Below, piece by piece: positions 3,228 through 59,126 of a stretch of DNA of 64,000 nucleotides. The notes under the pieces were generated by a model. It did not search any database, had not been told where the DNA came from, and worked only from the letters and a program-made list of their open reading frames with translations. The translations under genes were made by a program, and so were the position numbers. The first letter of the stretch is position 1; each line of letters opens with the position of its first letter. The stretch comes from an uncultured bacterium (GTDB taxonomy: Bacteria; Fidelibacterota; Marinisomatia; Marinisomatales; UBA1611), in NCBI GenBank assembly GCA_943788175.1, contig CALSPG010000001.1, forward strand, positions 240,873 through 304,872, written 5' to 3'.

Positions 3228-4550
3228 TTAGTCTAAACCAATAATTGTTGGTTTATTTACGGGCCCAGTTAGTTTTAAGACAATCACAGGTCCTTCTCTG
3301 TTTAAATTTTTATCATTCTCTATTTCCCATTCTCTTATAATATCTCTTACGCCATATGATATCGGATTAATTCTAATTTCAGTATCAAATAAATCCAATG
3401 AACTAAAATCTTTTTTTCTAGTATCAAATGAAAATTGCCCACTAATATTAATTTTTAAAAATGGACTATCAAATAATGCTTCAATTATTCCAAATTCATT
3501 ATCATAAAATCGAAAATTAAAATCTGCTCTTCTAATACGTAATAAACCATTCCTGGCACCAAGTTCAAGCATTAAGAAGTTTATAGTCTCATCGTTAGTA
3601 ATAGACGGTGGTATTTTAAACTCAAGGTTTTTGATTGAAAAATCACCACTGCCATTCTGAAAATTTGGATAGCCTTCCGTATCTAAAACTTGGAAAGATA
3701 AATTATTTATATTTAGGATTATATCGTTTATTTTGAAATTAGTTTGTTCGAAAATATCATTATTAGGGATGGCTGTTACTGACAATCCTTTAAGTGTGAA
3801 TTTTCCATATTTTTGAAAATACTCAATACTAGAACTTTTTGGAGATAAACCAATATTAATATCTGAAAGTAGCGACTGTTCAATTTCATTTATATTAAAT
3901 CTAAAAGACCAGTTTGTACTGTCTTTAGGAAAATTATCAGATTCTTTGTTGGTTATTTTTTTCGTTTCCCAGTTTAAAGAAATATATTTTTCTTGTTTTT
4001 TGTGGCTTGAAGTTGTTCGCGCATCAATACTAATTGGTAATGACATAGTGTAGTTCCATTCATTATTGCTAAATGGATATTTGTCGGGTCTTATCAAAGA
4101 CTCGATAACTAAGTCATTATAATTTTTTGGATATTTTTCATTTTTTTGGAAATAAGCTTCGGTTGCTTTTTCTAAAACTTCAAAAGCATCCATCGGTGTT
4201 TCATACCGTTTATCTGAAAGATCAGTTAATATTAAGTTGTAAAAATTCGCTAATTTGTAGTTGGTTATTAATTCAAAATGATCAAGCAATAAGCCAGGTC
4301 CATTAATCACTATTCCTATTGATTCATCATTTATATTTTTTATTGCTATATCATCAAAACCAAATTTTAAAGATTGTATTGAGAGTTGTGCATTCTCAAG
4401 GCTGTCTTTTGATATATTAGTAGCTATTTTAAATTTATTAAGTTGAAAATATAATTGTTCTAATGATGCTGTCGCATCAATATAATTTTGGCTTTTTATA
4501 CTTTGCCCTATAATTAAGACAATAAAAATGCATTTTGTTAAAATTTTCAT
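3228..4550 (-). CDS. hypothetical secreted protein
   Basis: Long ORF. The internal Met at 4550 gives a clean signal peptide (MKILTKCIFIVLIIGQSIKSQ), while the 33 codons upstream in the track ORF look non-coding. I recognise no family motif. Confidence 0.6.
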   Translation of the reverse strand: MKILTKCIFIVLIIGQSIKSQNYIDATASLEQLYFQLNKFKIATNISKDSLENAQLSIQSLKFGFDDIAIKNINDESIGIVINGPGLLLDHFELITNYKLANFYNLILTDLSDKRYETPMDAFEVLEKATEAYFQKNEKYPKNYNDLVIESLIRPDKYPFSNNEWNYTMSLPISIDARTTSSHKKQEKYISLNWETKKITNKESDNFPKDSTNWSFRFNINEIEQSLLSDINIGLSPKSSSIEYFQKYGKFTLKGLSVTAIPNNDIFEQTNFKINDIILNINNLSFQVLDTEGYPNFQNGSGDFSIKNLEFKIPPSITNDETINFLMLELGARNGLLRIRRADFNFRFYDNEFGIIEALFDSPFLKINISGQFSFDTRKKDFSSLDLFDTEIRINPISYGVRDIIREWEIENDKNLNREGPVIVLKLTGPVNKPTIIGLD

Positions 4551-4629
4551 ATTTTTATTAATTTGTTGTATACATAATTTATGTAGTGAGTCAATTTGAT
4601 AAACTATTTTTTTCGAATACTTTAATTTT

Positions 4630-4959
4630 ATGAAAAAACGACAAAACATTGTGTTCTCTACGGATGAAAATTTTTTTCATGATAAAAATGAATCTATAGA
4701 ACCTATTAATGTGGCTGCAAATGAACAAAATCTGAAAATCAGTTTAAAAAGGCTACCTGGTAATAGGATATTAACGATTATTAATGGTTTAAAAGGAGAC
4801 GCCTTAAGCTTTAATGCTTTATCAAAAGATCTTAAAAAGGCTTGTGGTGTCGGCGGATCGGTAAAAAATAGACAAATCTTAATCCAAGGAAATCATAGGG
4901 AAAAAATAATAAAAATTTTAGATGAAAGAGGCTTTAAAGTAAAGGCCAGTGGAGGTTAA
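4630..4959 (+). CDS. yciH: translation initiation factor SUI1/YciH family
   Basis: 109 aa. The C-terminal KKACGVGGSVKNRQILIQGNHREKIIKILDERGFKVKASGG matches the YciH/eIF1 pattern (KKxCGCGGxVK...IQGD...G..VK..GG). Confidence 0.85.
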   Translation: MKKRQNIVFSTDENFFHDKNESIEPINVAANEQNLKISLKRLPGNRILTIINGLKGDALSFNALSKDLKKACGVGGSVKNRQILIQGNHREKIIKILDERGFKVKASGG

Positions 4960-4968
4960 ATTTATAAC

Positions 4969-6141
4969 ATGAAATTTTTTAATTTAATTACATTTATAGT
5001 TTTAAGTGTCATGTCATTTTCTTCGTGCGATAAATCGTTAAAACTATCAAAAATAAAAATGGTGCTAACTGGGAGTGTTCATGGCCAGTTAGATCCTTGT
5101 GGCTGAAAGAAAAATCCTCTAGGCGGTCTGTCTAGAAAATTAATGGTATTAAAAGATATGCGTAAGAATGGTGAAAGCCCTCTAGTTCTTGATGCCGGCG
5201 ATATGTTCTTTAGTAAAACTAGCATTAACATTAATAATATTAAATCAGAGCAGCATAGGTGCGAAACTATGTTAAAAGGCTACGAGAAAATTGGCATTGA
5301 CGCTCAAAATGTTGGTAAGTATGAACTTTTAGCTGGGTTATTATATCTGAAAAAAATGGAGAAAAAGTTCAGTAATATTCCATTTATTTCTGCAAATATA
5401 AAAAGTGCTGCGACAGGCGAGTTATTATTTAAGCCATACCGTGTCGTAAGTAAAGATGGTCTTAACATAGGTGTTTTGGGTTTAACTAATATGGTTCCTG
5501 ATACGATGCGCTCTGTTGTCATGGATGACTACATAAATACAGGAATTAAATACATTAAAGAATTGAAAAATAAAGTTGACCTTATTGTTTTGCTTGTTAA
5601 TGCAGATAGAACTTCCCAGGCTTCTTTATCAAAACATTTTAGCGATGCGGATTTTATTTTTACAAGCGGTAGTACTCATAGAACTAGCTCATCAATGACT
5701 CAAAATAAGAATGGTCCTTTTTTATATTCTAATGGAAAACAAGGTAAATACCTATCGATAATTGATCTTGAGATTAAAAATGTCAAGGGACCCATTGCTG
5801 ATCTTTCAGCTCCAGAACAAAAAGTAAAACAACTTAATAATAGGCTGAAAAGATTGCAGAAAAAAGATCCAAATAGTTCTCTTGAAAAAATTTATGCTGG
5901 TAAAGATAATATCTTAAACCTAATCAAACGCTATAAAAACGACCTTAAAACAGCAGAAACTGCTATTGAAAATGCTTCAAATAAAATGAGATACACTAGT
6001 TTCGCGTTAAATAGAAAAATAAAAGATGACCCTGAAATGTTAACAATGGTTAATCTTGCTGTCGAAAAATGTAAATCGTTAGAATTGAATAATAATAGTT
6101 TTGAAAAAAGTAATTCTCACGGGCACAACCATAGCCATTAA
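4969..6141 (+). CDS. calcineurin-like/5'-nucleotidase-type lipoprotein with an in-frame TGA (codon 46); candidate selenoprotein
   Basis: ATG 4969 is in the same frame as track ORF 5143..6141. The sequence reads MKFFNLITFIVLSVMSFSSC (lipobox) ...VLTGSVHGQLDPCG-TGA(5104-5106)-KKNPLGGLSRKLMVLKDM... and this TGA is the only stop. Downstream motifs are LVLDAGDMFF and NVGKYE (a degenerate GNHE), and the tail is His-rich (SNSHGHNHSH). Confidence 0.65.
5118..5136 (+). promoter_or_regulatory. putative bacterial SECIS hairpin downstream of UGA 5104
   Basis: UCUAGGC-GGUCU-GUCUAGA forms a 7-bp stem (one G-U pair) with the loop GGUCU. Counting U of the UGA as 1, G22 G23 U24 C25 U26 G27 match the bases at the same positions of the E. 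coli fdhF SECIS as I recall it. Confidence 0.5.
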
Positions 6142-6185: not shown

Positions 6186-6671
6186 ATGAACTATTCTAAC
6201 TCGATCCACCAAGTAGGTATCTTCATATTTATATCTTTAATTTTTAGTATTTCTACTAATTTTTTCCGATCTGATTCTATTGATTATATCTCAAAAGGAT
6301 TTGATAAAGTTGAATCTTTAGATGATTTAAATTTAAATAGTGAAGAGGGTATTAAAGAGGTTAGTTTAAAAATTGCTCAGGATTTGTTCAAAAAGGAGAC
6401 ACTTTTTATTGATGCTAGAGCTAAAGAATATTACCTTGAGGGACATATCCCTGGTGCAATTTGTTTTGATGATTTTGATTCTCTTTCAAATGAAATTGAT
6501 AATAGGATCCAAAATAATGAATTTTTTGTAGTTTACTGTAGTGACGATGACTGTGGTTCAAGCGAAGAACTTTCATATCAGTTGCTTGACGAGGGCTTTA
6601 CAAGTATTTATTTATTTCGAGGCGGTTGGAAGCTGTGGATAGATAATAAAATGCCTATTGAAAAACCATGA
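6186..6671 (+). CDS. rhodanese-domain protein, membrane-anchored
   Basis: It has an N-terminal hydrophobic helix. Rhodanese signatures are EYYLEGHIPGAI, the active-site loop VVYCSDDDCGSSEE and LFRGGWKLW. Its stop overlaps the next start (ATGA at 6668-6671). Confidence 0.85.
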   Translation: MNYSNSIHQVGIFIFISLIFSISTNFFRSDSIDYISKGFDKVESLDDLNLNSEEGIKEVSLKIAQDLFKKETLFIDARAKEYYLEGHIPGAICFDDFDSLSNEIDNRIQNNEFFVVYCSDDDCGSSEELSYQLLDEGFTSIYLFRGGWKLWIDNKMPIEKP

Positions 6672-7119
6672 ATTACTTAAAAAGTTATTCTATATTAATA
6701 TTAAGAATTATTGTTGGCTCGGTTTTCTTATGGGCTAGTCTAAGCAAGATCATAGATCCTTCAAAGTTTGCTAGAGAAATTTCAAATTATCATGTTATGC
6801 CATTTGGTTTGGAGAATACGTTGCTATCTTTTTACCATGGTTAGAGTTTTTTATTGGCTCTGCACTCATTCTTGGAATTATGGTTGATGGTTCGGTAATC
6901 ATATGTGCATCTTTATTAATTATGTTTAATTTGCTTGTAGCTCAAGCAATGGTTCGAGGTTTTAACATAGAGTGTGGATGTGGCTTAAAAGAGGGTGAGC
7001 TAGTTGGTTTTCAAAAGCTATTTGAAAACTTTACCTTTCTAGGATTCTGTGTTTTGATTTATTTTAGAAAAAATAAATTTTTGGAAATATTTCCAAAAAC
7101 AGAATTGTCTGATAAATAA
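6668..7119 (+). pseudogene. MauE/DoxX-family membrane protein with one frame change near 6822-6830
   Basis: ATG 6668 gives MNYLKSYSILILRIIVGSVFLWASLSKIIDPSKFAREISNYHVMPFGLENT and then a stop. The sequence continues in another frame as AIFLPWLEFFIGSALILGIMVDGSVIICASLLIMFNLLVAQAMVRGFNIECGCG (track ORF 6880..7119). Confidence 0.7.
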
Positions 7120-7141: not shown

Positions 7142-7214
7142 GCGAGAGTAGCTCAGCTGGTAGAGCATCACCTTGCCAACGTGGATGTCGCGAGTTCGAA
7201 TCTCGTCTCTCGCT
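7142..7214 (+). tRNA. tRNA-Gly (anticodon GCC)
   Basis: Hand-folded cloverleaf: acceptor stem GCGAGAG/CTCTCGC, D arm GCTC-AGCTGGTA-GAGC, anticodon arm TCACC-TTGCCAA-CGTGG (one 31:39 mismatch), T arm GCGAG-TTCGAAT-CTCGT. It closely resembles E. coli tRNA-Gly(GCC). CCA is not encoded. Confidence 0.9.
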
Positions 7215-7220
7215 CGCGAT

Positions 7221-14469: not shown

Positions 14470-15030
14470 TTAATTATTTTTAGAATCTATTACAGTGGGT
14501 GGTGTTTCTTTTGGTTTGCTACCCCAATAAGAAGGGCGTGTATTAAGCATATAAAATAGATTTTCAGAAGTACGATATACTATATCTACACCAATATTTC
14601 TGTAAAAGTTGTGAGCATAGTCTTGACCTTTATTGCTAAATATAGTCGATGCTATCAGCTTGTCATCCTGAAAAACTGATAAGAGTTTTCCAGAAACGGT
14701 ATCAACGCCAAATGTAACCCATTTATTTGGATTTTTTGACATAACCATATCATAAGTTCCGCCGATAACTTTTTCAAAGAATTGGTCGATTTGCCTATCT
14801 TTAACAACTAACGAATCATTATCAAGGATAGACCAAACTGAGTCAGTTTTAAAAAGAGTGATTGATTCACCAGAAGAATCTTTGAGTATAATTTTATTTA
14901 TAATATCTGCATCTAAATCAAATATCGTTTCAGAGGTGCCTATGTATTTATTTTGTTGTCCTTGATTGATAAAATAAAGAAATAATAATGTGCCAAAGGC
15001 GATGAGTAAGTATTTTAAAGATTTATTCAT
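14470..15030 (-). CDS. DUF4340-like protein, last gene of the gld-like ABC operon
   Basis: It has a signal anchor and lies directly downstream of, and overlapping, the GldG-like gene, which is the usual DUF4340 position. The family call rests on context and size. Confidence 0.5.
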   Translation of the reverse strand: MNKSLKYLLIAFGTLLFLYFINQGQQNKYIGTSETIFDLDADIINKIILKDSSGESITLFKTDSVWSILDNDSLVVKDRQIDQFFEKVIGGTYDMVMSKNPNKWVTFGVDTVSGKLLSVFQDDKLIASTIFSNKGQDYAHNFYRNIGVDIVYRTSENLFYMLNTRPSYWGSKPKETPPTVIDSKNN

Positions 15031-16561
15031 ATATTTGTTTTAGTATATCTGCTTTTGTTTTTTCATTCTTTGATCTGTAGAAGCCTAATCCAGCGATTAT
15101 TAGTGAAGGTAAAAGGACATTAGCCCATTTCCATCGAGTTCTTGTCCCGTCTTCAATCTCATCAAGAGGCCTATTGGTTATTTCACGAGAACGCAGTGCA
15201 ATAAGTTCTTTTTCACCTGCTAAATAATCAATAGCATTCATTAAAAAGACCATATTCTCAGGAATGGACATTCCTGCATCATCTGCTAGAAACTTTGAAT
15301 CAGAAACTAGAATTAACTCCCCACCGGTAGCTAGCCTAGAGGCAGCGCCAACAATTTTACTATCCTGATTTAGGTTTTGGAGAAACGGGTTATTTTTTGG
15401 ATCGGGACTAAGCATAAATCTACCCGCCATGATGCCAGATTTATTAGAACTTGAAAATAGATCAGTCACTCCAATTACTTCGTCGCTTAGTAATGTATCT
15501 AGAACTATTTCACTTGGGAAAAAGACATGTATCTGTTCGAGACCACTAACCACAAGTTCCTGATCATTAAAATTCTTAATTATTGGAAGAAATGGATATT
15601 CCATTGGTACGTTCATCCGGATAAAGCCCATTTGCTGTTGGACTTGTACACGCCCACAAGATTTATCTAGAACTAGATTTTTGTTAATAATTAGACCGTA
15701 TGACTTTAATAAAGAGAATATATTTGAGTTTATTGGATTTGCTTGCTGAACTTGCATGTCGGTTAAAACAGCGCCTTGGGCCATAAAAATGTTTTTGCCA
15801 GAATTCATAAAACTTTGAATATTAGTAATTGAATTATCGTCTAAAGTATCCGTAGCTCCACTTATTAACATCACATCAATATTATCCATTATTAAATCTT
15901 CATTTGAAAGATCTAATGATTGAACATTATGATGTTGTCGTAATTGATTAGAAAGGTTTTCAGTTTTAACCTCTTCGGTTTTCGAAAGGTTCACAATGCC
16001 CACTGTTTTTTTATTTGTATTTACTAGAGTTTTAATTTTTGTTGTTATTAAATATTCTAAACCAGTAGCAGTTTGAATAACGGGTATAGTCTCTTTTTTA
16101 TCCTCATAAAGCATCACCATTCCTAAATATACTTTCTTAATCTCTAGCTTGTCATCTTCAACAACCTGCATCTGAACAGGTTGTATACCATCCTTTTGTG
16201 CTTCTTCTTGTAGTTTTTCATTAGATTCCGGATCAGTAAAGAAAAATCGAATGTTATCAGACTTGGCTTCATACTCTTCAAGCAAATCTTGTAAATATCT
16301 TTTAGTATTAGATAGCTCGCCAGGGAGATCGTTAGAGAAGTACACCTTCATAGTTAATAAGTCGTCAATTTTATCTACGATGTTTTCGCTCGAGCTACTC
16401 AGAGAATACATTTTGTTGTCAGTAAGATCAAAACGTTTGTACCAGTTTCTACTAATTAAATTGAGTAATAATAATGCTCCTATTAAAATGAGAAGATATA
16501 TTGTGAGAGAATTTCTATTTTTTACTAACATGTATTTAACTCCATCTCCGAGACTCAACAA
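15023..16561 (-). CDS. gldG: GldG-like ABC-transporter auxiliary protein
   Basis: 512 aa with N- and C-terminal TM helices flanking a large periplasmic domain. It follows the ABC-2 permease. The start may be the second Met (MLVKNRNS...). Confidence 0.7.
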   Translation of the reverse strand: MLSLGDGVKYMLVKNRNSLTIYLLILIGALLLLNLISRNWYKRFDLTDNKMYSLSSSSENIVDKIDDLLTMKVYFSNDLPGELSNTKRYLQDLLEEYEAKSDNIRFFFTDPESNEKLQEEAQKDGIQPVQMQVVEDDKLEIKKVYLGMVMLYEDKKETIPVIQTATGLEYLITTKIKTLVNTNKKTVGIVNLSKTEEVKTENLSNQLRQHHNVQSLDLSNEDLIMDNIDVMLISGATDTLDDNSITNIQSFMNSGKNIFMAQGAVLTDMQVQQANPINSNIFSLLKSYGLIINKNLVLDKSCGRVQVQQQMGFIRMNVPMEYPFLPIIKNFNDQELVVSGLEQIHVFFPSEIVLDTLLSDEVIGVTDLFSSSNKSGIMAGRFMLSPDPKNNPFLQNLNQDSKIVGAASRLATGGELILVSDSKFLADDAGMSIPENMVFLMNAIDYLAGEKELIALRSREITNRPLDEIEDGTRTRWKWANVLLPSLIIAGLGFYRSKNEKTKADILKQIYE

Positions 16562-17249
16562 GTCTCGTGGTTAGAAAAAGGAAAAAACCTATCACAGAAC
16601 CGAAATAAATAAGATTTCGAGTGTCGATAACGCCTCTAGATATGTTGGAGAGATGATATTCAACGCTTAAATATTGTATCGTACCAGCAAGTAAATCCGG
16701 CATAAAGATCAAAACTTTATCAAAAAGCCAAAAAACAAAAATAATAGCGATGCCTACAATAAAAGAAATAACTTGATTATCAGTAACCGCGCTTGAAAAC
16801 ATACCAACAGAAGCATACACTGAACCAACAAGGAGTAAACCTAGGTATCCAGTAAAAACAGCACCATAGTCAATTGAGTTTCCAAAAGAAGAAAGGGTAA
16901 TAAAATGTAATGATGTAGTCAAAAGTGCTATGGCAATGAGTGCAACTGCTGATAAATATTTGCCAACTACGATATCTCTGTCATCAATAGGAAGTGTAGA
17001 AATAATTTCAATTGTACCAAGTCCTTTTTCTCTAGATATGAGTCCCATTGTTATTCCCGGGATAAAAAATAGGTACACCAAGGGTACAATATTAAAAAGT
17101 GTCCTTAAATCAGACTGACCATAAAGAAAAAACGTTGTTGTAAAGAACCATCCGTTCAGTAGCGCAAAAACGACAAGAAAAACATATGCCATTGGGCTAT
17201 CGAAAAACGATTTTAGCTCCCTTTTAAAAATTGTTAGAGTGTTATGCAT
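16536..17249 (-). CDS. gldF: ABC-2 type permease (GldF-like)
   Basis: 237 aa, polytopic. Its start overlaps the ATPase stop. Confidence 0.75.
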   Translation of the reverse strand: MHNTLTIFKRELKSFFDSPMAYVFLVVFALLNGWFFTTTFFLYGQSDLRTLFNIVPLVYLFFIPGITMGLISREKGLGTIEIISTLPIDDRDIVVGKYLSAVALIAIALLTTSLHFITLSSFGNSIDYGAVFTGYLGLLLVGSVYASVGMFSSAVTDNQVISFIVGIAIIFVFWLFDKVLIFMPDLLAGTIQYLSVEYHLSNISRGVIDTRNLIYFGSVIGFFLFLTTRLVESRRWS

Positions 17250-18193
17250 TATGAAGGCTTACCATTGCTTGTTAAGTTTCGAAAAATATCCTCAAGGTTT
17301 TGTTTTGTGGCTACCATTTCTAAAATAACCCATTTTTTAGAAACGGCATAATTGAATATATCAGCACGAGGATCTTTGTTATTTGAATATTCAATATTAA
17401 TGTTAGTGTAAGAATCGTTTTTAGTAATGCTATCTATATCAATAGATGGAATAGTCGCTTTCATATCTTTAATATCATTTTCATTAGCATTACTAACATC
17501 AATACTTAACTCAACTTTACCGCCAGCTGAATCTTTGAGAAGCGATTCACTAGAACCATCAGCTACAATAGAACCTTCATTGATAATTATGATTCTATCA
17601 ACGGTAGCTTGTATCTCTTGTAAAATATGAGAAGACATTAAAACAATTTTTTCTTTTCCAAGTTTTTTTATTAATTGTCTTATTTCAACAATCTGGTTTG
17701 GATCTAATCCAGTTACCGGCTCATCAAGAATTAGTATTTTTGGGTCGTGAATCATCGCAGCTGCTAAGCCAATTCTTTGTTTATAACCTTTAGAACAGTT
17801 GCCAATAGTTCGATGAGCAACAGCATTTAAAGAACATTCTTCAACAACTTTTTGAAATGCATTTTTAAAGTCGTTACTGGGAATACCTCTTATATCTGAA
17901 ATAAATTTAAGATAATCATGAACTCTCATTTCACTGTACAGGGGATTGAGCTCAGGTAAATAACCTATATCTTTTTGTATATCCGATGTGTCATCTTGTA
18001 TGTTTCTATTTCCATAATAAACGTTGCCTGATGAGGGGGAGATGTAACCAGTCATTATTTTTAACGTTGTGCTTTTTCCGGCACCATTAGCACCAAGGAA
18101 ACCAACTACTTGACCGTCCTGCAATTCAAAAGATATAGACTTTACTGCTTTTACGTCATCATAGTTTTTAGATAAGTTGTCTACTTTAATCAA
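17249..18193 (-). CDS. gldA: ABC transporter ATP-binding protein (GldA-like)
   Basis: Walker A GANGAGKST, signature-region SKGYKQR, Walker B ILILDEP and H-loop SSH. Confidence 0.9.
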   Translation of the reverse strand: MIKVDNLSKNYDDVKAVKSISFELQDGQVVGFLGANGAGKSTTLKIMTGYISPSSGNVYYGNRNIQDDTSDIQKDIGYLPELNPLYSEMRVHDYLKFISDIRGIPSNDFKNAFQKVVEECSLNAVAHRTIGNCSKGYKQRIGLAAAMIHDPKILILDEPVTGLDPNQIVEIRQLIKKLGKEKIVLMSSHILQEIQATVDRIIIINEGSIVADGSSESLLKDSAGGKVELSIDVSNANENDIKDMKATIPSIDIDSITKNDSYTNINIEYSNNKDPRADIFNYAVSKKWVILEMVATKQNLEDIFRNLTSNGKPS

Positions 18194-49927: not shown

Positions 49928-51274
49928 TCATTTTAGATATATCATTTTGTTTGATAAGAGTGTTTTATCTACGATTAATTGATAAAAATAAACGCCCGAG
50001 CTTATTTCTTGGTCAAATTGATTTTTGGCGTTCCAATTCATTTCATAATAACCACTATGTTTAAAATCACTAATTATATTTTTAATCAAATTTCCTCTTA
50101 AATCATATATGGATAAGTCTACATTTGAATCGCGATGTAATAGAAAAACAAAATTTGTATACCCGTTAAATGGATTAGGATAATTATTCATTTCAAGTTT
50201 ATAACTTTCAGGTAAATTAATATCAATACCCAGGTAATTGGTTTTTAAAGAATTAATTAATCTTTGTTTACCATCTATAATATCATAACTAAGAGCCCAT
50301 ATCATTAAGCCGCCAATTTGATTATCTTTCACATAATCACTTTTTCGCGCAATAGAAGTAGAATCTTCTATGGTAATGATTTGGTCTTGTGTCGAATTTC
50401 GTAAATATGGTGATTGAGCTGTATTATCCCAATTATAATCCCAGCCGTTATTAATATAATGCTCATATTGATTATACAGTAGTGATGATACTTCACCTTG
50501 AAAAGACTGATTTATGTCTAAAGCATTGTATTGTTTGCCATAGAAAGCCAAACCGATATTAATCTTACTTCGAGGAATACCTCGGGTATTTGAAAGGTAA
50601 TTAAAACCAGTGCTTACTGCTCCATCGGGATCGTTCACGGGAGAAGGATATAATGGTGCATTGTGACCTGCGTGATCGGTCCAAGACCCATGGAAATCAT
50701 ATGTCATTGCATTAAAATAACTAACATTTTGGATCAATGAATTAAAATCATAATGCTGCCCAGACCAATTGGAAACAGGTACAGCCATAGATATTAACCA
50801 CTCAGGATATAGTTCATTAAATGCTTGTCTTAATTCAGCGATAAAATGACTTAAATTATTTTTTTGAGTGACACCGGTTGGATGCTCCCAATCAATGTCA
50901 ATTCCATCATAATTGTTATTTTCGCAAATACTAATGATATTATCAATAAAAATAGAACGCGCTTCTTCGGATTCGACTGATGGTGCAAATCCCCATGAAT
51001 TTCCCCAACCGCCTAAACTCAGTAAAATTTTTGCACCATGGTCATGTACAACGCTAGTAATTGATTGAGAAATCATATCATCATAGTGTAAAATATTACC
51101 CTCTTCATCAGGCCATGCGAAAGCATGATTTACATGTGTAATTACACTATAGTCTATTTCTGAAGGATGAAGATTTCCTTGAACCCATTGTGGATAATAA
51201 CCAACAACCCGTTGTGAAAAAGAAATATCAAAAACACAGGTACATAATATTATAGTAGCTAGTAATAATTTCAT
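49928..51274 (-). CDS. GH18 chitinase with a T9SS C-terminal sorting domain
   Basis: It has a signal peptide, the catalytic DGIDIDWEHP (DxxDxDxE) and the C-terminal NNYPNPFNGYTNFVF...VYFYQL...MIYLK. Confidence 0.9.
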   Translation of the reverse strand: MKLLLATIILCTCVFDISFSQRVVGYYPQWVQGNLHPSEIDYSVITHVNHAFAWPDEEGNILHYDDMISQSITSVVHDHGAKILLSLGGWGNSWGFAPSVESEEARSIFIDNIISICENNNYDGIDIDWEHPTGVTQKNNLSHFIAELRQAFNELYPEWLISMAVPVSNWSGQHYDFNSLIQNVSYFNAMTYDFHGSWTDHAGHNAPLYPSPVNDPDGAVSTGFNYLSNTRGIPRSKINIGLAFYGKQYNALDINQSFQGEVSSLLYNQYEHYINNGWDYNWDNTAQSPYLRNSTQDQIITIEDSTSIARKSDYVKDNQIGGLMIWALSYDIIDGKQRLINSLKTNYLGIDINLPESYKLEMNNYPNPFNGYTNFVFLLHRDSNVDLSIYDLRGNLIKNIISDFKHSGYYEMNWNAKNQFDQEISSGVYFYQLIVDKTLLSNKMIYLK

Positions 51275-51369
51275 TCTTAATTGAAGATTAGCGAATTTAA
51301 TATTAGATAGCTAATCTAGTTATCAAAAAAAGTAATAAATAATTAAGGAATATCTTTAAAAAGCTAAAA

Positions 51370-54300
51370 CTACTTTAGTAGTATCATTTTTTTTGAACTA
51401 TTAAACTCTTTTGTTTGTAGGGATAAAATATATACACCTGCGGGTAAAATTGAACCTAAATTATTTTCTCCGCGCCACATAATTTCTTTATATCCTGGTG
51501 ATTGAACAGAATTAACTAAAGACTTTACATTTTCACCTTTAAGGTTATATATATTTGCATTTACAATTGTTCTTATTGGTAATTCATACTGAATCTTTGT
51601 TATAGGGTTAAATGGGTTTGGATAATTCTGCTTTAACAAGAATAAATGTGGAACAGGATCGATTTCGGTATCTAGCTCTCCATTAAAACAGCTTCCAACT
51701 TCATATGTATGTGGTTCCGCGGATGTGTTCCTCTCTAAACCATTATACGAATATGTGTAATAAAACTGTATCATCTCACCTTCATTTGCATTTATTTGAA
51801 ATGGAATATTAGGGCTTACATTGTATCCTGGCGGTGTTCCCCCTGTGCTATAATAAAGAATACAAGTTGGGTTTCCCACATGCCCTTGACTTGGTATAAA
51901 AGTAAGCGTTGGGTTATTTATATCGTCAGAAAATTCATATGTATAGTCGCCATTGCCTGGACCGCCTATGCATGATGGCGCCTCAATTATTTCAATTTCA
52001 AATGAGTTTGATTCAGAAGATAAGCCATCATCGTCTGTTGCAATAACCTTGATAGTATGATACCCCAATGAAATGTTTTCCCAAAGGTATTCAAATGGTT
52101 CTTCAATTATTTCGGTAATAATTATGTCATTATCATAAAATTGAATTAATTCAATCTCTCCATCAATATCAGTCGCACTAGCAATAAGCTCTATAGAAGT
52201 TCCCTGATAATATGTCTCACTTAAATTGGATGTATTTAAGGAAACAGAAGGTGATAGGTATTCAGAATCAGAAACAAAAATATTTACGTAATCTTCTGAT
52301 GAGTGAGAATTATCATCTACAATAAGTTTAAATTTGTATGTTCCCTCTATTAATCCTGTGATATTTGTTTCTACAGTTAGTGGTGTTACTATACTTACAG
52401 TATTAGGGCCAAATATTTGAACCCATTGAAAATTTAAATTATCTGTATCAATATCTGAACTTAAGCTACCATTAAGAGTTGCAGTTGAATTTGGTAAAAT
52501 TACTAGTACATCCTCCCCTGCGTTTGATAATGGTGGGTTATAATCTAAATTTCTATTAAACGTAAAATTTAACCTACCTAGATTAAATCCACCCTGTATA
52601 AAAACAATCCTTAGAACATGTTTTCCTGTATTTAGTTCAATGTTTTGAGAATTTCCCGTTTGCCAGTTATACCAATCCCCTGTATTAGCAGCATATATAT
52701 TATCACTAACTATTTCTCCATTTATCTCAAAATGAAAAGGGCCACCTCCACCCGCAATATCTGAAGCATATCTATAGTCTAAGTCATAGTAGCCAGCGGC
52801 AAGAACATTTATCGAGTATTCAACCCATTCACCTGGCTCAATCCAGCCCAGAGTTGGTCCTTCGATATTTCCAGAGTATTCGACATCAACGTATTCATCA
52901 GTCCTATAGTCTCCTTCATTGTTAAGTGAATTATCAAAATATGAAATATTTTGGCCTAAGCCTCCTTCAAAAGCATCATATTTACCCGGTTCAATAATAC
53001 CCGGGATATTGTTTTCAGAATTGTTATAGGCTAACTGTTCCCCAACAACAATTGTAATAAAATTGGTTAATCCAAATTCAGAACCAGAAAACATTTTACC
53101 GTAAATATTATGAGTTCCCAAAGACAGATTTTGGGCTGTGAACTCAAATGGTTGTGATGTTACCTCACCAATTAGATCTCCGTTATCATAAAACTCTAAT
53201 CTTGTAATATTTTGATTTTGGGATTCAAAGCTAATTAAAGCACTACCATTTATGTATGACTGAACAAAATCTGTTTGTATTGAACCTGCTATAGCTTCTC
53301 CTCTATTTGTGCCCATGTCTTTTGGATTCACGGTTAATTGATATCCATCAGAAAAAGATACTAATAACGGTTCTTCCGTATAATTATGAGCGGCGTATGT
53401 AATCTGTCCATTCTTATTAAAACTAGCAGCAATTGGCCAGTTAGCTGTGATTTCAGACCTATATTGTCCTAATGCATTCATACTATGTAGCCAGTAATAT
53501 GTCTGAGCATCTGAGATTCCAAACTTTAAAATTCTATCTGGATTCGAATTGTAAAGTTCAATTGCAGCAGGAGCATCAATATATGAAAGGTATTTCCAAA
53601 ACACATCATGCCATAAATTTGGATTTATCTCATTGTTTAAAATCCCTGTATTGCTAGTGATCTCTGTCCATAGATTAGTAGTATATTCTAAATTATGAGA
53701 TAAATAAAAAGACCCACCATGAATTGGATACATTTCAATACCGTAGGAAGCTGCTATATCATTAGTCCAGAATGTCCCGTTGTCATATGAATTCCCCCAG
53801 ACCCTTGAGACTAAGCTATATTGTTGATTATCACCAAAGTTTCTATTGTACATATCAAACCAGTACTCATCAATAGCTGTTCTTTCTGTGGTATATAAAT
53901 AAATACCTAGGTCTCTGATCTCATCATTACCTGTAACGCTTCCCCAGTGTATTAATGAGGAATTAAACTGCATGCTTTCAGAGGTAGATTCTTGGTCATT
54001 TCCTTGAGGGAAAGTAGCAAATCCATTTGCCCAGCAGTGGCCTGCAAAAGGGCTAAAACTTCTTAAAAATGGGTAATTAGGGTCATCTCTATTAGATGAT
54101 GCAGCATCTCTCACTAAATGATTTACCATCTCACCCCATTCATCTGCCCAACCGGGATCAAATTGTTCGATAAATGATGCAGCATGAATAAAATAACCCC
54201 AATGAAAATGATGATCGTTAATATTGTTATCTTGACCATGCCCTGAAGGGTAACCAATTAATGTGGACCAAGTAGAATTATAGTAGAAAATAAAAGCAAC

Positions 54301-55518
54301 TTCAGATGAAGAAGCTGTTAACCAATCTTCTAACCTATTTTTGACTGTCACAATCATCTGATCTCTTGCTTCTGTATTACCTAATTCATGAGCTATTCTA
54401 GCGGTCTGAACTAAGCGGTTCATTACTTGGCCTTCGTTGTAAGAGTCGGTCCATGTTGCAAGTTGATTATTCTCAATTTGTGAAATTTTATTTTGTAAAT
54501 CCGCTGGATTATAACTCTCGCTATAATGGGGCAAATCTGGTAAAGTTGGAAGAATCCCGGAAAATAAATTTTTTGTACTGAAATTATTTCCATTTAACAT
54601 TTTTAGTTCACCCCTTACGCTATTATATGAATATTCATATGGATAGGGTGACTCATCAGATAAATTATTCCATTGGTGAGGAAGTAAACCTTGTAAAATA
54701 TTTTCGTATGAGCCTTCTTTAATATCTACTTCTACTAAAAAGTCAGTATAAACGACTGAGTTGTTATTATCATATGACCATTCAACAGAGGTATTTTGAG
54801 GAAAAACGTAGGCATATTTCTGTAGATCCGCGACAACTGAATTAAGGTTGCTGTAGTCTTGTGGCAGCATAGCAAGTGACCAATAATTTTGACCATTTAA
54901 GCTGGAGGTATACTTATTACCAGATTGTTGCCAAGAACTCCCGGTAGGAGCATAAATAACAAAATCTGCTCCATTTCTGGCATCCTCTATTATCATTTTT
55001 TCACTTAAAACAGTGACTTGACCTAAGTTTACTTCTATTTCAACTTCTGAATTTGTGTCTTTATTAAAATAAATAAAAGGCATGCCTACGCCAGAAGTGG
55101 CTTGGAGGGAATTATTTTCATCTGTCCAGTCTAACGTTACAGTCCAATCAGAAAAATCATATACTTTTGCTTTAGATGAGCTCAATCCAGATAGACCAAT
55201 AATTATTGGTTCTTGATCATCGTATACCCCCCATGGTAAATAACTCACAACTAAACCTTTATTTACTGTTTTAAGAGCCATCGGATAGTTAAAGAGATTA
55301 CTTACATGGTCATTTTTTATAACCGAGGACCACCAATCATTAGTTGGTATATGCTTGTTTGAAGCTGGTCCAATTGTTTGTGGTTGTCCTGATGGATAGC
55401 TATTTCTTCCGGCCTCATCAGTACCAGGAAAACTAGTCGTGTAGCTACCAGAACCGACTTGAACAACTTGTGAAAAAACAAAGTTTATTAAAAATAATAT
55501 TATAGTGTATTTAATCAT
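51370..55518 (-). CDS. GH81 endo-beta-1,3-glucanase with CBM-like and Ig/PKD-like modules and a T9SS C-terminal sorting domain
   Basis: GH81 signatures are NDHHFHWGYFIHAAS and DQESTSESMQF. CBM6-like segments follow (GWIEPGEWVEYSINV, YRYAS), then repeated Ig-like modules. The C-terminus reads QNYPNPFNPITKIQYELP...VYILSL...MILLK. Confidence 0.88.
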   Translation of the reverse strand: MIKYTIILFLINFVFSQVVQVGSGSYTTSFPGTDEAGRNSYPSGQPQTIGPASNKHIPTNDWWSSVIKNDHVSNLFNYPMALKTVNKGLVVSYLPWGVYDDQEPIIIGLSGLSSSKAKVYDFSDWTVTLDWTDENNSLQATSGVGMPFIYFNKDTNSEVEIEVNLGQVTVLSEKMIIEDARNGADFVIYAPTGSSWQQSGNKYTSSLNGQNYWSLAMLPQDYSNLNSVVADLQKYAYVFPQNTSVEWSYDNNNSVVYTDFLVEVDIKEGSYENILQGLLPHQWNNLSDESPYPYEYSYNSVRGELKMLNGNNFSTKNLFSGILPTLPDLPHYSESYNPADLQNKISQIENNQLATWTDSYNEGQVMNRLVQTARIAHELGNTEARDQMIVTVKNRLEDWLTASSSEVAFIFYYNSTWSTLIGYPSGHGQDNNINDHHFHWGYFIHAASFIEQFDPGWADEWGEMVNHLVRDAASSNRDDPNYPFLRSFSPFAGHCWANGFATFPQGNDQESTSESMQFNSSLIHWGSVTGNDEIRDLGIYLYTTERTAIDEYWFDMYNRNFGDNQQYSLVSRVWGNSYDNGTFWTNDIAASYGIEMYPIHGGSFYLSHNLEYTTNLWTEITSNTGILNNEINPNLWHDVFWKYLSYIDAPAAIELYNSNPDRILKFGISDAQTYYWLHSMNALGQYRSEITANWPIAASFNKNGQITYAAHNYTEEPLLVSFSDGYQLTVNPKDMGTNRGEAIAGSIQTDFVQSYINGSALISFESQNQNITRLEFYDNGDLIGEVTSQPFEFTAQNLSLGTHNIYGKMFSGSEFGLTNFITIVVGEQLAYNNSENNIPGIIEPGKYDAFEGGLGQNISYFDNSLNNEGDYRTDEYVDVEYSGNIEGPTLGWIEPGEWVEYSINVLAAGYYDLDYRYASDIAGGGGPFHFEINGEIVSDNIYAANTGDWYNWQTGNSQNIELNTGKHVLRIVFIQGGFNLGRLNFTFNRNLDYNPPLSNAGEDVLVILPNSTATLNGSLSSDIDTDNLNFQWVQIFGPNTVSIVTPLTVETNITGLIEGTYKFKLIVDDNSHSSEDYVNIFVSDSEYLSPSVSLNTSNLSETYYQGTSIELIASATDIDGEIELIQFYDNDIIITEIIEEPFEYLWENISLGYHTIKVIATDDDGLSSESNSFEIEIIEAPSCIGGPGNGDYTYEFSDDINNPTLTFIPSQGHVGNPTCILYYSTGGTPPGYNVSPNIPFQINANEGEMIQFYYTYSYNGLERNTSAEPHTYEVGSCFNGELDTEIDPVPHLFLLKQNYPNPFNPITKIQYELPIRTIVNANIYNLKGENVKSLVNSVQSPGYKEIMWRGENNLGSILPAGVYILSLQTKEFNSSKKMILLK

Positions 55519-55720: not shown

Positions 55721-57330
55721 ATGATTACTACATCTAATATTTCCATGCAATTCGGTTCGAAGCCATTATTTGAAAGTATATCCGTCGCTTTCTCTGATAA
55801 AAATAGATATGGCCTCATTGGTGCAAACGGTTCTGGAAAATCAACCTTTATGAAAATACTTACGGGTGAATTAGAACCTACCTCTGGAACCGTATCGATT
55901 GATAAAAATAAACGAGTTTCAAAACTGAGTCAAGATCAGTTTGCATATGAAGATATAAAAGTATCTGATTGTGTTATTATGGGGGCACGATTTGCTCTGG
56001 AAAATCAAAAATGAGAGAGAAAAAACTTTATAGTCTGCCTGAAATGACTGATGAGCAAGGAATGAAAGTCGCTGAATTAGAAGTTGAATTTGGGAGAGAT
56101 GGATGGATATACGGCTGAAGCGAATGCTGAGGAACTGCTCCTGGGACTTGGAATTCCAATCGAAGACCACGACAAGCCAATGAGTTCTATTGCTCCAGGT
56201 TTGAAATTACGAGTACTCTTAGCGCAAGCTCTATTTGGCGGACCCAGGCATACTACTATTGGATGAGCCGACAAACAATCTTGATATAAATACTATTCGA
56301 TGGCTTGAAAACACGTGTAAAAAAACAAAGATTGTGTTGATGATTGTCATCTCTCATGATAGGCGATTTTTAAATAGTGTATGCACAAATATGGCAGATT
56401 TAGATTACGGCGAAATAAGGGTTATTACAACGGAAACTATGATGACTTTATGATTGCAGCAACCATGGCCAGAGAAACACTTATGAACGAGAACGCAAAA
56501 AAACAAGCAAAGATAAAAGAATTACAATCATTTGTTAGTCGTTTTTCTGCAAATGCATCTAAAGCCTAAGCAAGCTACATCAAGGGCAAACCAAATAAAT
56601 AAGATAAAATTAGAAGATATATAATTCTTCTAGCAGGGTTTACCCATTTATTAGATTTAAGCAAGAACAAAAAAGTTGCATAACAAGGTGGTTGACATCG
56701 AAAACATTTCTAAGTCTTATGATGATTTAAATGTTATTAAAAAATTTAATATGACTATTAATACTGGCGATAGAATCGCTATTGTTGGTGAAAATGGAAT
56801 CGGTAAAACAACTTTACTTAAATGTATCATTGAAAGCAGTTTTTCTGATAACGGTATTATTAAATGGTCTGAAAATGCATCTATTGGCTATTTTGCGCAA
56901 AATCACAGCGATGAATTCAAAGGCGATATAAGTTTGATTGATTGGATGGCTAAATGGAGTCATAAAGATGATGATCTAGAAACTATAAGAGGCACATTAG
57001 GTCGATTATTGTTCAATCAAGATGATATTAATAAACCAATTAGTGTATTATCTGGCGGAGAACAACGTCGAATGCTAATTGGAAAAATCATCCTACAAAG
57101 GGCAAATGTCATTATATTAGATGAACCGGACTAATCACTTAGATATGGAATCAATAGAAGCCCTAAATCATGCTCTAAGTATATTTGAAGGAACAATTAT
57201 TTTTGTTTAGCCATGATAGAGAGTTTATCTCTTCTCTTTCAACTAGACTATTAGAAGTTCGAGAAGAAAAGATAGTAGAGCACAGTGGGGGGTTATGAAA
57301 GTTATAGGGACAGTATTAATGGAAGCTTAG
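55721..57330 (+). pseudogene. ybiT: ABC-F ATPase (YbiT-like), heavily disrupted
   Basis: Homologous pieces occur in changing frames: GANGSGKST (55721..), [22 protein letters not shown] and [15 protein letters not shown] (56084..), [11 protein letters not shown] and ISHDRRFLN (56235..), [15 protein letters not shown] (56381..), GENGIGKTT and LSGGEQRRM..ILDEP (56676..), and HLDMESIEALN and SHDREFISS beyond 57134. There are also in-frame stops near 56567-56690. Confidence 0.85.
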
Positions 57331-57552: not shown

Positions 57553-59126
57553 TTAGATATTTGAGCAAGCCTAAAGTTAAAACTGTCACTTAAAGCTTGC
57601 CTACTAGCATCAATAATATTTTTCGAAACACCAATTGTTGACCACGACTCATCTCCATATGTGCTTTCAATCAAAACTCTAACCTTTGCGCCAGTGCCTT
57701 CTTGTTCATTTAATACGCGAACTTTATAGTCAGTTAGTCTAACATCTTTTTAAGTGCGGAAAAAAAATCGAGACAAGGCCTTGCGAAGAGCATTATTCAA
57801 AGCATCAACAGGACCATCTCCATCAGAAGCTGTGTGCTCAATATCTCCATCTACCAAGACCTTTAAAGTAGCATCAGATTTTGCGCTATCATTTTCACCA
57901 TGCGAAATATGTACGTTTGAATCTATAACAGTAAAAAAAGGACTATATTCACCAGACAGCTCTCGAATAATAAGCTCTAGAGATGCATCAGCTGCTTCAA
58001 ATTGATAGCCTTTAAACTCTAACTCTTTTACTTTAGAAATCAGTTTACCAGTAATTTCTTTGGAGTTTTTAAAGTTTATATTTAATTCATTTGCTTTAAA
58101 GCTGATATTACTTTTTCCAGAAAGGTCAGAAACAAGAACTCTTTGCTTATTTCCAACTATGTCTGGTTTTATATGTTCATACATAGAGCTATTTTTCATA
58201 ACTGCGCTAACGTGTATTCCACCTTTGTGGCGCGAATGCAGATTTGCCTATGAATGGAGCTTGAGTGTTAGGAGGCATATTCATAATATCATAGGTAAAA
58301 CTCACCAAACTGGCAAGGTTCGGTAACTTTAAGTCAGTCTTTGTAGTTACATTCATTTTTAATACTAAATTTGGTATTACTGTTGCTAAGCTAACATTTC
58401 CGCATCTTTCTCCTACGCCATTTATAGTTCCTTGAACATGTAATGCTCCTCCTGTATACTGCCGTTAGCGTATTTGCGGCAGCTAAGCCACTATCATTAT
58501 GTGAATGAATACCAATTGGCAAAGAATACCGTTCAACAACTTTTCTTGGTGACATCATAAATATTATTTGGGAGAGAGCCACCATTAGTATCACACAATA
58601 CTAGTGTATCTGCACCGCCATTTACGGCCGCATCTAACATTTCTAATGCAAATGATTCAGATTGTTGATATCCATCAAAAAAATGCTCTGCATCAAAGAG
58701 GACCCGCACTCCGTTTTTTGAAAGAAAAGCAACAGAACGCTCAATAAGTTTTGCATTATCTAGATCAGATATTCCTAGTCCATGTTTAGAATGTAGTTGC
58801 CATGTTTTACCAAATATCGTAATCACTCCAACCTCAGCTTCTAACAATGATAATAAGTTGTGGTCTCCCTCAACATTACTTAGCTTTCTAGCTGTAGAAC
58901 CGAAAGCACATATTTCTGATTGTTTTAGGTTTATGGACTTAATTTTTTTGAAGAAACTTTTATCTCTGGGATTGCTTCCAGGCCAGCCGCCTTCTATAAT
59001 GTTAATACCAAAATCATCTAATCGCTTAGCTAGTCTAATTTTATCCTCAACCGATAAATTAACGCCTTCACCTTGCGTTCCGTCCCTTAAGGTTGTGTCA
59101 AATAATTCTATTGCTTTATTTTTCAT
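57553..59126 (-). pseudogene. cimA: citramalate synthase-like (CimA/LeuA family) gene, disrupted by several frame changes; the 3' limit is approximate
   Basis: The N-terminus is intact (FDTTLRDGTQGEG, 58533..59126). PIGIHSHNDSGLAAANTL follows in another frame (58391..58594). FIGKSAFAHKGGIHVSA-type sequence around 58200-58330 is in yet another frame. The C-terminal regulatory domain (GDGPVDALNNALRKAL, 57750..58199) and LTDYKVRVLNEQEGTGAKVRVLIES come after a further shift. Confidence 0.8.

Follow-up and report, generated by a model that had tools for sequence, protein, structure and literature searches.

A conserved in-frame UGA in an UshA-like lipoprotein gene of marine Marinimicrobia very probably encodes selenocysteine

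We analyzed a 64,000-nucleotide stretch of DNA (the window) from an uncultured marine bacterium of the Marinimicrobia (SAR406/Fidelibacterota). Positions 4969-6141 of its forward strand very probably form a single gene for a lipoprotein of about 390 residues, in which an in-frame UGA is decoded as selenocysteine (Sec). The TGA at 5104-5106 almost certainly encodes Sec, and the gene model needs correction. The protein belongs to the "UshA-like" CxU selenoprotein family, which was catalogued in 2008, so the result is the re-annotation of a known selenoprotein family and not the discovery of a new one.

The frame begins with the ATG at 4969-4971, spans 390 codons and ends with the TAA at 6139-6141. 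Its sole internal stop is the TGA, codon 46, which is in frame with that ATG. The translation opens with MKFFNLITFIVLSVMSFSSC, reads VLTGSVHGQLDPCG up to the TGA and KKNPLGGLSRK directly after it, and closes with SNSHGHNHSH. The TGA context is D-P-C-G-(TGA)-K-K-N-P-L-GG, with the recoded Cys44-Gly45-Sec46 (TGT GGC TGA) at 5098-5106. Residues 1-20 (4969-5028) form a putative lipoprotein signal peptide with a lipobox ending in FSS-C20, as judged from the motif. In most Marinimicrobia orthologues a hydrophobic stretch likewise ends in W, F, S, T or Y followed by S-C; the lipobox Cys is conserved in homologues and the signal sequence is otherwise variable. The conserved S-C motif underlies the lipoprotein assignment, and export of the predicted product is strongly supported. 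At the other end, the His-rich tail H-G-H-N-H-S-H (6118-6138) has counterparts in homologues of 45-98% identity (HHNHSH, HSGHDH, HKHGHSH and similar). A mechanical list of open reading frames (ORFs) places the gene start at ATG 5143 (Met58). A sequence-only reading of the window had instead begun the gene at ATG 4969 and included a lipoprotein signal and a first strand upstream of an in-frame TGA at codon 46, an otherwise open frame to 6141 and a His-rich C-terminus. All of this was borne out: the frame and translation agree on re-reading the window, the upstream codons are conserved, strand beta1 is modelled upstream of the TGA, and the tail recurs among homologues.

A protein search returned about 260 relatives of the window protein, of two kinds. 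Some are entries of 319-351 aa that start after the TGA, and others are full-length entries of 356-407 aa with "W" at the TGA site, meaning that they were called with genetic code 4. Entry P0001, which is 98% identical to the window protein and stands for 103 member sequences, reads through the site. Public entries P0001-P0120 are systematically mis-annotated, being either truncated after the TGA or given Trp at the Sec position, and some of the truncated ones are named 2',3'-cyclic-nucleotide 2'-phosphodiesterase. The Trp suggests the code-4 model of the gene caller.

At the nucleotide level, a survey of one genome per GTDB species yielded 48 loci. Forty-four of these come from metagenome-assembled genomes (MAGs) and single-cell amplified genomes (SAGs) of the Marinimicrobia, or Neomarinimicrobiota, a phylum that NCBI now names Fidelibacterota. 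The window and these 44 loci make up the 45 sequences compared here. In 45 out of 45 the TGA directly follows D-P-C-G, at protein identities as low as 30%. Over the 14 codons 5' of the TGA the amino acids are fixed while synonymous change is free, with His encoded by CAT or CAC, Gln by CAA or CAG, Cys by TGT or TGC, Leu by six codons, and Pro and Gly by four each. Because the amino acids are fixed while the synonymous sites vary, both sides of the TGA are translated in one frame. Two of the MAGs also carry a second paralogue (L040:753-1781, in the same MAG as L015, and L041:344-1363, in the same MAG as L014). These paralogues have a TGA as well, in the context DPCGU-PKKPLGG; their N-terminus has no lipobox Cys, and the rhodanese, MauE and SUI1 genes described below are not adjacent to them.

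More distant relatives have a Cys in place of Sec. Four homologues of 22-26% identity (L045-L048), from Bacteriovorax, Bdellovibrionia and a "Pseudomonadota" MAG, carry Cys at the aligned position within the motif EPCGC-R-x-NP-x-GG-x-x-RK. The same holds for all 20 of the relatives of about 520 aa that were inspected, out of 403 matches. Across Sec and Cys forms, P-C-G-x-x-x-N-P-x-G-G-x-x-R is invariant. Sec in one set of homologues and Cys at the aligned position in the other make a classical Sec/Cys pair. The sequence-only reading had pointed to a C-x-C pair in relatives, with the UGA opposite its second Cys, and had asked for homologues that span the site; those found read EPCGC...NPxGGxxRK in the distant forms and have TGA throughout the Marinimicrobia type.

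From the TGA onward the 45 sequences align without gaps, and in this stretch RNAalifold, covariation and codon constraint point to a hairpin like a selenocysteine insertion sequence (SECIS) at 5118-5136, with the stem 5118-5124/5130-5136 and the loop GGUCU at 5125-5129. The conserved core of the consensus stem has five pairs, 5120-5124/5130-5134 (columns 17-21/27-31), and can be extended to columns 15-21/27-33, giving a stem of 5-7 bp that starts 11-13 nt 3' of the UGA. The two members of pair 18-30 are third codon positions, one in a Leu codon and the other in a Ser codon. This pair is GC in 24 sequences, AU in 12, CG in 2, UA in 1 and GU in 3, and is never unpaired; its covariation score was reached by none of 500 shuffles. 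When the 3' partner was slid by 1-3 columns, the paired fraction fell from 87% to 26-52%. The loop is constrained at the level of codons. Its Gly-Gly-Leu is encoded by GGC in 45/45, GGT in 45/45 and CTG in 44/45, the sole variant being CTA for CTG in the paralogue L041. In comparison columns of the same stretch, all four Gly codons occur at five near- or fully invariant Gly residues and six codons at an invariant Leu, and in the window genes CTG accounts for 2.9% of Leu codons and GGC for 16.5% of Gly codons. These patterns strongly support a predicted hairpin of the fdhF type that is under selection at the RNA level.

As a check on the Escherichia coli fdhF SECIS, TGACACGGCCCATCGGTTGCAGGTCTGCACC was located within fdhF in 5,419 of 5,426 E. 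coli genomes. With the T of the TGA as nt 1, GGTCTG lies at nt 22-27 in the window gene and in E. coli fdhF alike (GGUCUG in the RNA), and both have a short stem inside the coding region. The stem sequences differ. The loop predicted for the window has 5 nt (GGUCU, closed by C-G), whereas that of fdhF is GGUC closed by A-U; unlike in fdhF, no lower stem is evident in the window and U17 is predicted to be paired rather than bulged. The apical SECIS loop lies 16-37 nt from the UGA in bacteria (PMC10778597), a range that includes the window loop, which starts 18 nt after the UGA. The common minimal bacterial SECIS element is an apical hairpin of 5-6 bp (PMC4607533). An Rfam search with the hairpin gave no match, either at the gathering threshold or with E values of up to 10 allowed. 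A pattern scan of about 750 kb (the window plus roughly 690 kb of related loci) for an open-frame TGA with a GGUC-loop hairpin 3' of it matched this gene alone, apart from two sites in unrelated high-GC loci, which were taken as chance matches. As in the E. coli fdhF SECIS, the hairpin 11-13 nt past the UGA would present its GGUCU loop, which would recruit SelB with Sec-tRNASec, and decoding of the UGA as Sec would produce the Cys44-Gly45-Sec46 motif. Hairpin-directed recoding of the UGA is mostly demonstrated by these data.

Other explanations of the TGA were weighed against its decoding as Sec. If it were a genuine stop, the gene would start at Met58 and the upstream 45-codon frame would be a separate small ORF or untranslated, as mechanical ORF finding and many public calls (the entries of about 330 aa) have it. 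However, these 45 codons are conserved as protein, with synonymous variation, in 45 species, and both the signal peptide and strand beta1 lie within them. The Cys forms run continuously through the TGA position, the truncated calls vary in length (319-351 aa), and their product would have no signal peptide although the full-length relatives are exported. We regard a Met58 start as very unlikely. Still less credible, and close to negligible, is that the TGA is a sequencing error or the gene a pseudogene. The window does hold frameshifted genes (the MauE-type gene at 6668-7119 and ABC-F and synthase genes at 55.7-59.1 kb), but the same TGA occurs in 44 independent genome assemblies and in Sanger reads of the Global Ocean Sampling (GOS) metagenome, and P0001 continues through the site; error and pseudogene were ruled out on the 45/45 conservation.

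A reassigned codon has slightly more in its favor, though it too is improbable. The TGA could be reassigned genome-wide, to Trp (code 4) or Gly (code 25), or be read through by a near-cognate tRNA without selenium, with insertion of Trp or Cys. The W at this site in public full-length homologues, the AT-rich genome (32% GC in the window) and the lack of visible Sec machinery in the window would all fit. Yet 7 of the 47 window ORFs with 150 aa or more have TGA as their stop, and those with 200 aa or more contain 251 TGG codons for Trp. Open frame extends to either side of 21 TGAs in the window, of which only that at 5104-5106 was judged a plausible read-through, by inspection without homologue comparison. 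The window uses the standard code, and codes 4 and 25 were ruled out by this stop-codon usage together with the lack of another convincing in-frame TGA. The homologues, moreover, carry Cys and not Trp or Gly, and simple read-through leaves the RNA-level conservation of an fdhF-type SelB-binding loop unexplained.

The best NCBIfam match of the window protein is NF041198, UshA_like_PCGU, "UshA-like (seleno)protein" (E 7e-63). The score of 212.9 bits is below the 275-bit cutoff and the match covers positions 3-387 of the 519 in the equivalog profile; three other Marinimicrobia forms score 200-214 bits. As in NF041198, a P-C-G-U/C motif is present near the N-terminus (DPCG-TGA). The protein is not a member of NF049981 (UshA-like selenoprotein family 2), which has the motif CxxU where the window has CxU and which scores 43.3 bits against a cutoff of 140. 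The NCBIfam models for UshA, CpdB, NadN and SoxB match at E 1e-8 to 1e-16. Assignment as a SoxB thiosulfohydrolase (TIGR04486) was rejected, with 57 bits against a 550-bit cutoff.

The study of the GOS ocean metagenome ranks "COG0737, UshA-like", with the motif CxU, in its 20 major selenoprotein families, gives 76 sequences with Sec and 92 homologues with Cys for it, and counts it among 51 "previously characterized" families (PMC2398784). The exact subfamily is already in the supplement of that study, where the COG0737_UshA set includes ...VSTNVRGQLDPCGUKKNPLGGLSRKSTYV... and ...SGSMHGQLDPCGUKKNPMGGLSRRYVKI... (Zhang & Gladyshev, PLoS Genet 2008, PMC2398784); PCGU occurs 74 times in it. The family is also listed in reviews from 2022 and 2026 (PMC9312934, PMC13188914). 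The window protein shares with the GOS family its motif, subfamily, lipoprotein-type N-termini, marine origin and Cys homologues, and there is no essential difference between them. The proposal of a candidate new selenoprotein from an undescribed family, made from the sequence alone, does not stand, as the same DPCGUKKNPLGGLSRK subfamily was described in 2008 and the family is curated as NF041198. In the published accounts of the UshA-like family we found no description of the SECIS, domain architecture, taxon assignment or gene neighborhood. The haem-less form in Marinimicrobia, its loss of ligands and its conserved gene arrangement may be additions to those accounts.

The AlphaFold2 (AF2) model of P0001 has a mean predicted local distance difference test (pLDDT) of 83.9 and a predicted template modelling score (pTM) of 0.81; the His-rich tail has a pLDDT below 50. 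Strand beta1 comprises residues 27-34, encoded 5' of the TGA. The top Foldseek matches in the PDB are E. coli UshA (1oie/1ush, E ~1e-18) and CD73, with E values of ~1e-18 to 1e-15 for the two together, and sequence alignment to UshA in the PDB gives E 7e-11. The protein resembles E. coli UshA, human CD73 and SoxB in its N-terminal metallophosphoesterase fold, linker helix and periplasmic or extracytoplasmic location. Unlike them, it has Lys-Tyr in place of the catalytic Asn-His, has lost several metal ligands, has no C-terminal nucleotide-binding domain and carries an additional Cys-Gly-Sec loop. The N-terminal calcineurin-like/5'-nucleotidase domain, approximately residues 27-270 (5047-5778), is degenerate, with the motifs S-V-H, DAGD and GKYE; in the alignment with E. 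coli UshA, VLDAGD stands opposite LLSGGD and GKYE opposite GNHE. Neither Pfam Metallophos nor 5_nucleotid_C was detected in the window protein. At its C-terminus the substrate-binding domain of 5'-nucleotidases is absent; the chain stops at residue 390, past a helical region. This region, about residues 280-371 (5806-6081), has AF2 helices at 280-297, 313-335 and 355-371 and ends at Cys368 (6070-6072), which is conserved in at least 90% of sequences. It includes a near-invariant RLxRLQKKDP motif, in which R292, R295, L296, Q297, K299 and P301 are invariant.

The Cys relatives (L045-L050; P0121-P0240), from Bdellovibrionota/Oligoflexia, are about 520 aa long and consist of an UshA-like domain fused to a cytochrome c with four CXXCH motifs. 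Their source names are "hypothetical", "5'-nucleotidase" and "multiheme c-type cytochrome". The four CXXCH motifs and a Pfam Cytochrome_C554 match lie in the C-terminal third. Taken by itself, the C-terminal domain of P0122 reaches 97 bits on NF041198 and fits best at profile positions 405-455, so the curated NF041198 comprises an UshA-like domain and a multihaem cytochrome c. The window protein shares with NF041198 the N-terminal UshA-like domain with PCG(U/C)xxNPxGGxxR. The multihaem domain of NF041198, which begins at about profile position 405, is absent from the Marinimicrobia Sec form; the window protein has no CXXCH and instead has Cys368 and the His-rich tail.

The haem-fused Cys forms retain more of the metal ligands than the Marinimicrobia Sec forms do. 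In the alignment, motif I is N-D-V-x-G in the former and G-S-V-H-G in the latter, motif III is P-G-E-K-D and G-K-Y-E, motif IV is T-H-Q-G and V-N-A-D-R, and motif V is G-G-H-S-Q and S-G-S-T-H/N; motif II is DAGD in both. The ligands were assigned by the UshA numbering. On this comparison the catalytic Asn-His of GNHE appears to be lost in Sec and Cys forms alike, and the Sec form appears to lack most of the dimetal ligands. Degenerate phosphoesterase ligands had been suspected from the window sequence, and GKYE in place of GNHE, S-V-H at motif I and the replaced motifs IV and V agree with that suspicion.

The protein is unlikely to function as a 5'-nucleotidase, cyclic phosphodiesterase or SoxB-type hydrolase in which the Sec or Cys is only structural or tunes a metal. 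The fold and the sequence similarity to UshA, CpdB, NadN and SoxB favor a hydrolase, as do the retained GD motif and one motif I His. Set against these are the change of GNHE to GKYE, which removes the catalytic His and a metal-binding Asn, the change of the motif I Asp to Ser, and motif IV and V His residues that do not align. The missing substrate-binding domain, the lack of a Metallophos or 5_nucleotid_C match and, for SoxB, the low profile score also speak against it. Rather than hydrolysis, the working center may be the Cys/Sec pair, in the loop that follows strand beta1 and motif I. We tentatively suggest, at somewhat less than even chances, a periplasmic redox or chalcogen-transfer protein with a selenenylsulfide or a soft-metal site. 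This suggestion is made because P-C-G-(U/C)-x-x-N-P-x-G-G-x-x-R is the only motif invariant in the Sec and Cys forms together, because the hydrolytic residues are gone, and because most Cys relatives have a multihaem cytochrome as a fused second domain.

The gene lies in a conserved block, all on the forward strand. Upstream is a SUI1/YciH-type translation factor gene (4630-4959; Pfam SUI1, E 2e-17), found at the same position in 37 loci. Its stop is 9 nt before ATG 4969, and the two genes are probably co-transcribed. A gene for a rhodanese-domain protein with an N-terminal hydrophobic segment (6186-6671; Pfam Rhodanese, E 7e-15) starts 44 nt after the selenoprotein stop. The rhodanese has tblastn matches in 36 loci; in about 34, among them the deepest branches (L036 and L042), it directly follows the selenoprotein gene. 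In NCBIfam it matches NF041203 best ("rhodanese_LYCAU, rhodanese-related (seleno)protein"), with 50.5 bits where the cutoff is 115; it reads VYCSDDDCGSS and has no Sec. A MauE/DoxX-type membrane protein with a CGCG motif follows (6668-7119; Pfam MauE), whose ATG overlaps the TGA stop of the rhodanese (ATGA). The block ends with a tRNA-Gly(GCC) at 7142-7215, identified by ARAGORN and Rfam and at the same position in most loci. The arrangement of SUI1, UshA-like, rhodanese, MauE and tRNA-Gly genes is kept in about 34-37 of the 44 Marinimicrobia loci, and no terminator-like site was found between the genes of the block. On the reverse strand at 3228-4649, upstream of SUI1, is a 473-aa ORF that shares about 20 nt with the start of SUI1. 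It matches nothing in Pfam or NCBIfam but is conserved in place in 34 Marinimicrobia loci (22-56% identity).

More speculatively, the partners of the selenoprotein in the haem-less Marinimicrobia could be the co-located rhodanese and MauE-like membrane protein, a pairing that we consider doubtful. Equally doubtful is the fuller picture, in which the Marinimicrobia proteins would be a functionally distinct, haem-less offshoot of the UshA-like family that has lost phosphoesterase chemistry. They would then form an undescribed periplasmic Sec-dependent module for sulfur/selenium trafficking or thiol redox with the co-transcribed rhodanese and MauE-like protein, and the His-rich tail would serve metal delivery.

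Several points count against our interpretation of the gene and its product. Neither the 64-kb window nor the flanking DNA of the 44 loci yielded selA, selB, selD or a tRNASec gene. ARAGORN detected no tRNASec in the window and the 44 Marinimicrobia loci and Rfam none in the window, while Pfam or NCBIfam profiles detected no selA, selB or selD among 30 window ORFs that account for the bulk of the coding sequence. Outside this profile screen, the ORFs with 290 aa or more were assigned from their N-termini: an ABC ATPase (17249-18193), the leucyl-tRNA synthetase LeuRS, and LeuA, LeuB and LeuC. In the literature on Sec use in Marinimicrobia we found only SelD in three SAR406 single-cell genomes, classed as "orphan SelD" (Peng et al. 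2016, PMC5029168), a label for SelD without any further Sec component seen in the partial SAGs concerned (PMC5029168). The orphan SelD shows selenium use in the phylum and not a complete Sec trait in those partial genomes. As to function, the C-G-U loop has a pLDDT below 50 in the AF2 model, and the Cys/Sec center would sit on a flexible loop. The linkage to rhodanese and MauE is absent from the lineages with Cys forms. There the gene comes after a cluster of Pal, DUF4398 and CpoB-like (CpoB/YbgF-like) tetratricopeptide repeat (TPR) genes, with a 4-nt overlap with the TPR gene, and is followed by tsaD and ksgA. These Cys-form neighborhoods, having neither rhodanese nor MauE, were set aside as an uninformative clue to function. 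The gene order in Marinimicrobia may also reflect phylum-wide synteny rather than function, since the block also keeps SUI1 and tRNA-Gly.

Other features of the window bear on assembly quality and origin. The MauE gene, a single intact ORF in L001, L002, L004 and L008, is frameshifted in the window only, by a -1 shift near 6816-6822 (...GLENT followed by VAIFLPWLEFFIG...), reflecting either an indel in the assembly or recent pseudogene formation. An ABC-F-type ATPase gene at 55721-57134 on the forward strand is in three ORF pieces in different frames, and a citramalate/isopropylmalate-synthase-like gene at 57750-59126 on the reverse strand is in two pieces, both identified from their N-terminal sequences. 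Together with the MauE shift, these fragmented genes suggest indel errors in the assembly. Type IX secretion system (T9SS) C-terminal sorting domains are present on two large secreted proteins, one chitinase-like of 448 aa and one of 1382 aa, and the window also encodes a GldG-like ABC component; these features lie at 49928-55518 and 15023-16561 on the reverse strand. The T9SS proteins and the GldG-like component are consistent with an origin in the FCB group (Marinimicrobia).

The correct annotation of the gene is a Sec-containing lipoprotein of 390 aa, where standard callers give about 330 aa or a code-4 Trp. Such calls cost the public entries their signal peptide and active loop, or insert the wrong residue, in a family that is among the 20 most frequent selenoprotein families of surface-ocean metagenomes (PMC2398784). 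As the SECIS loop is identical to that of E. coli fdhF in sequence and spacing, expression or reporter assays in E. coli may work directly. The contrast between haem-less Sec forms and Cys forms that mostly have a cytochrome domain, and the conserved gene order with rhodanese and MauE, offer handles on function. If the proposed function is true, a haem-less Sec-dependent module would lie in one of the most abundant phyla of the dark ocean.

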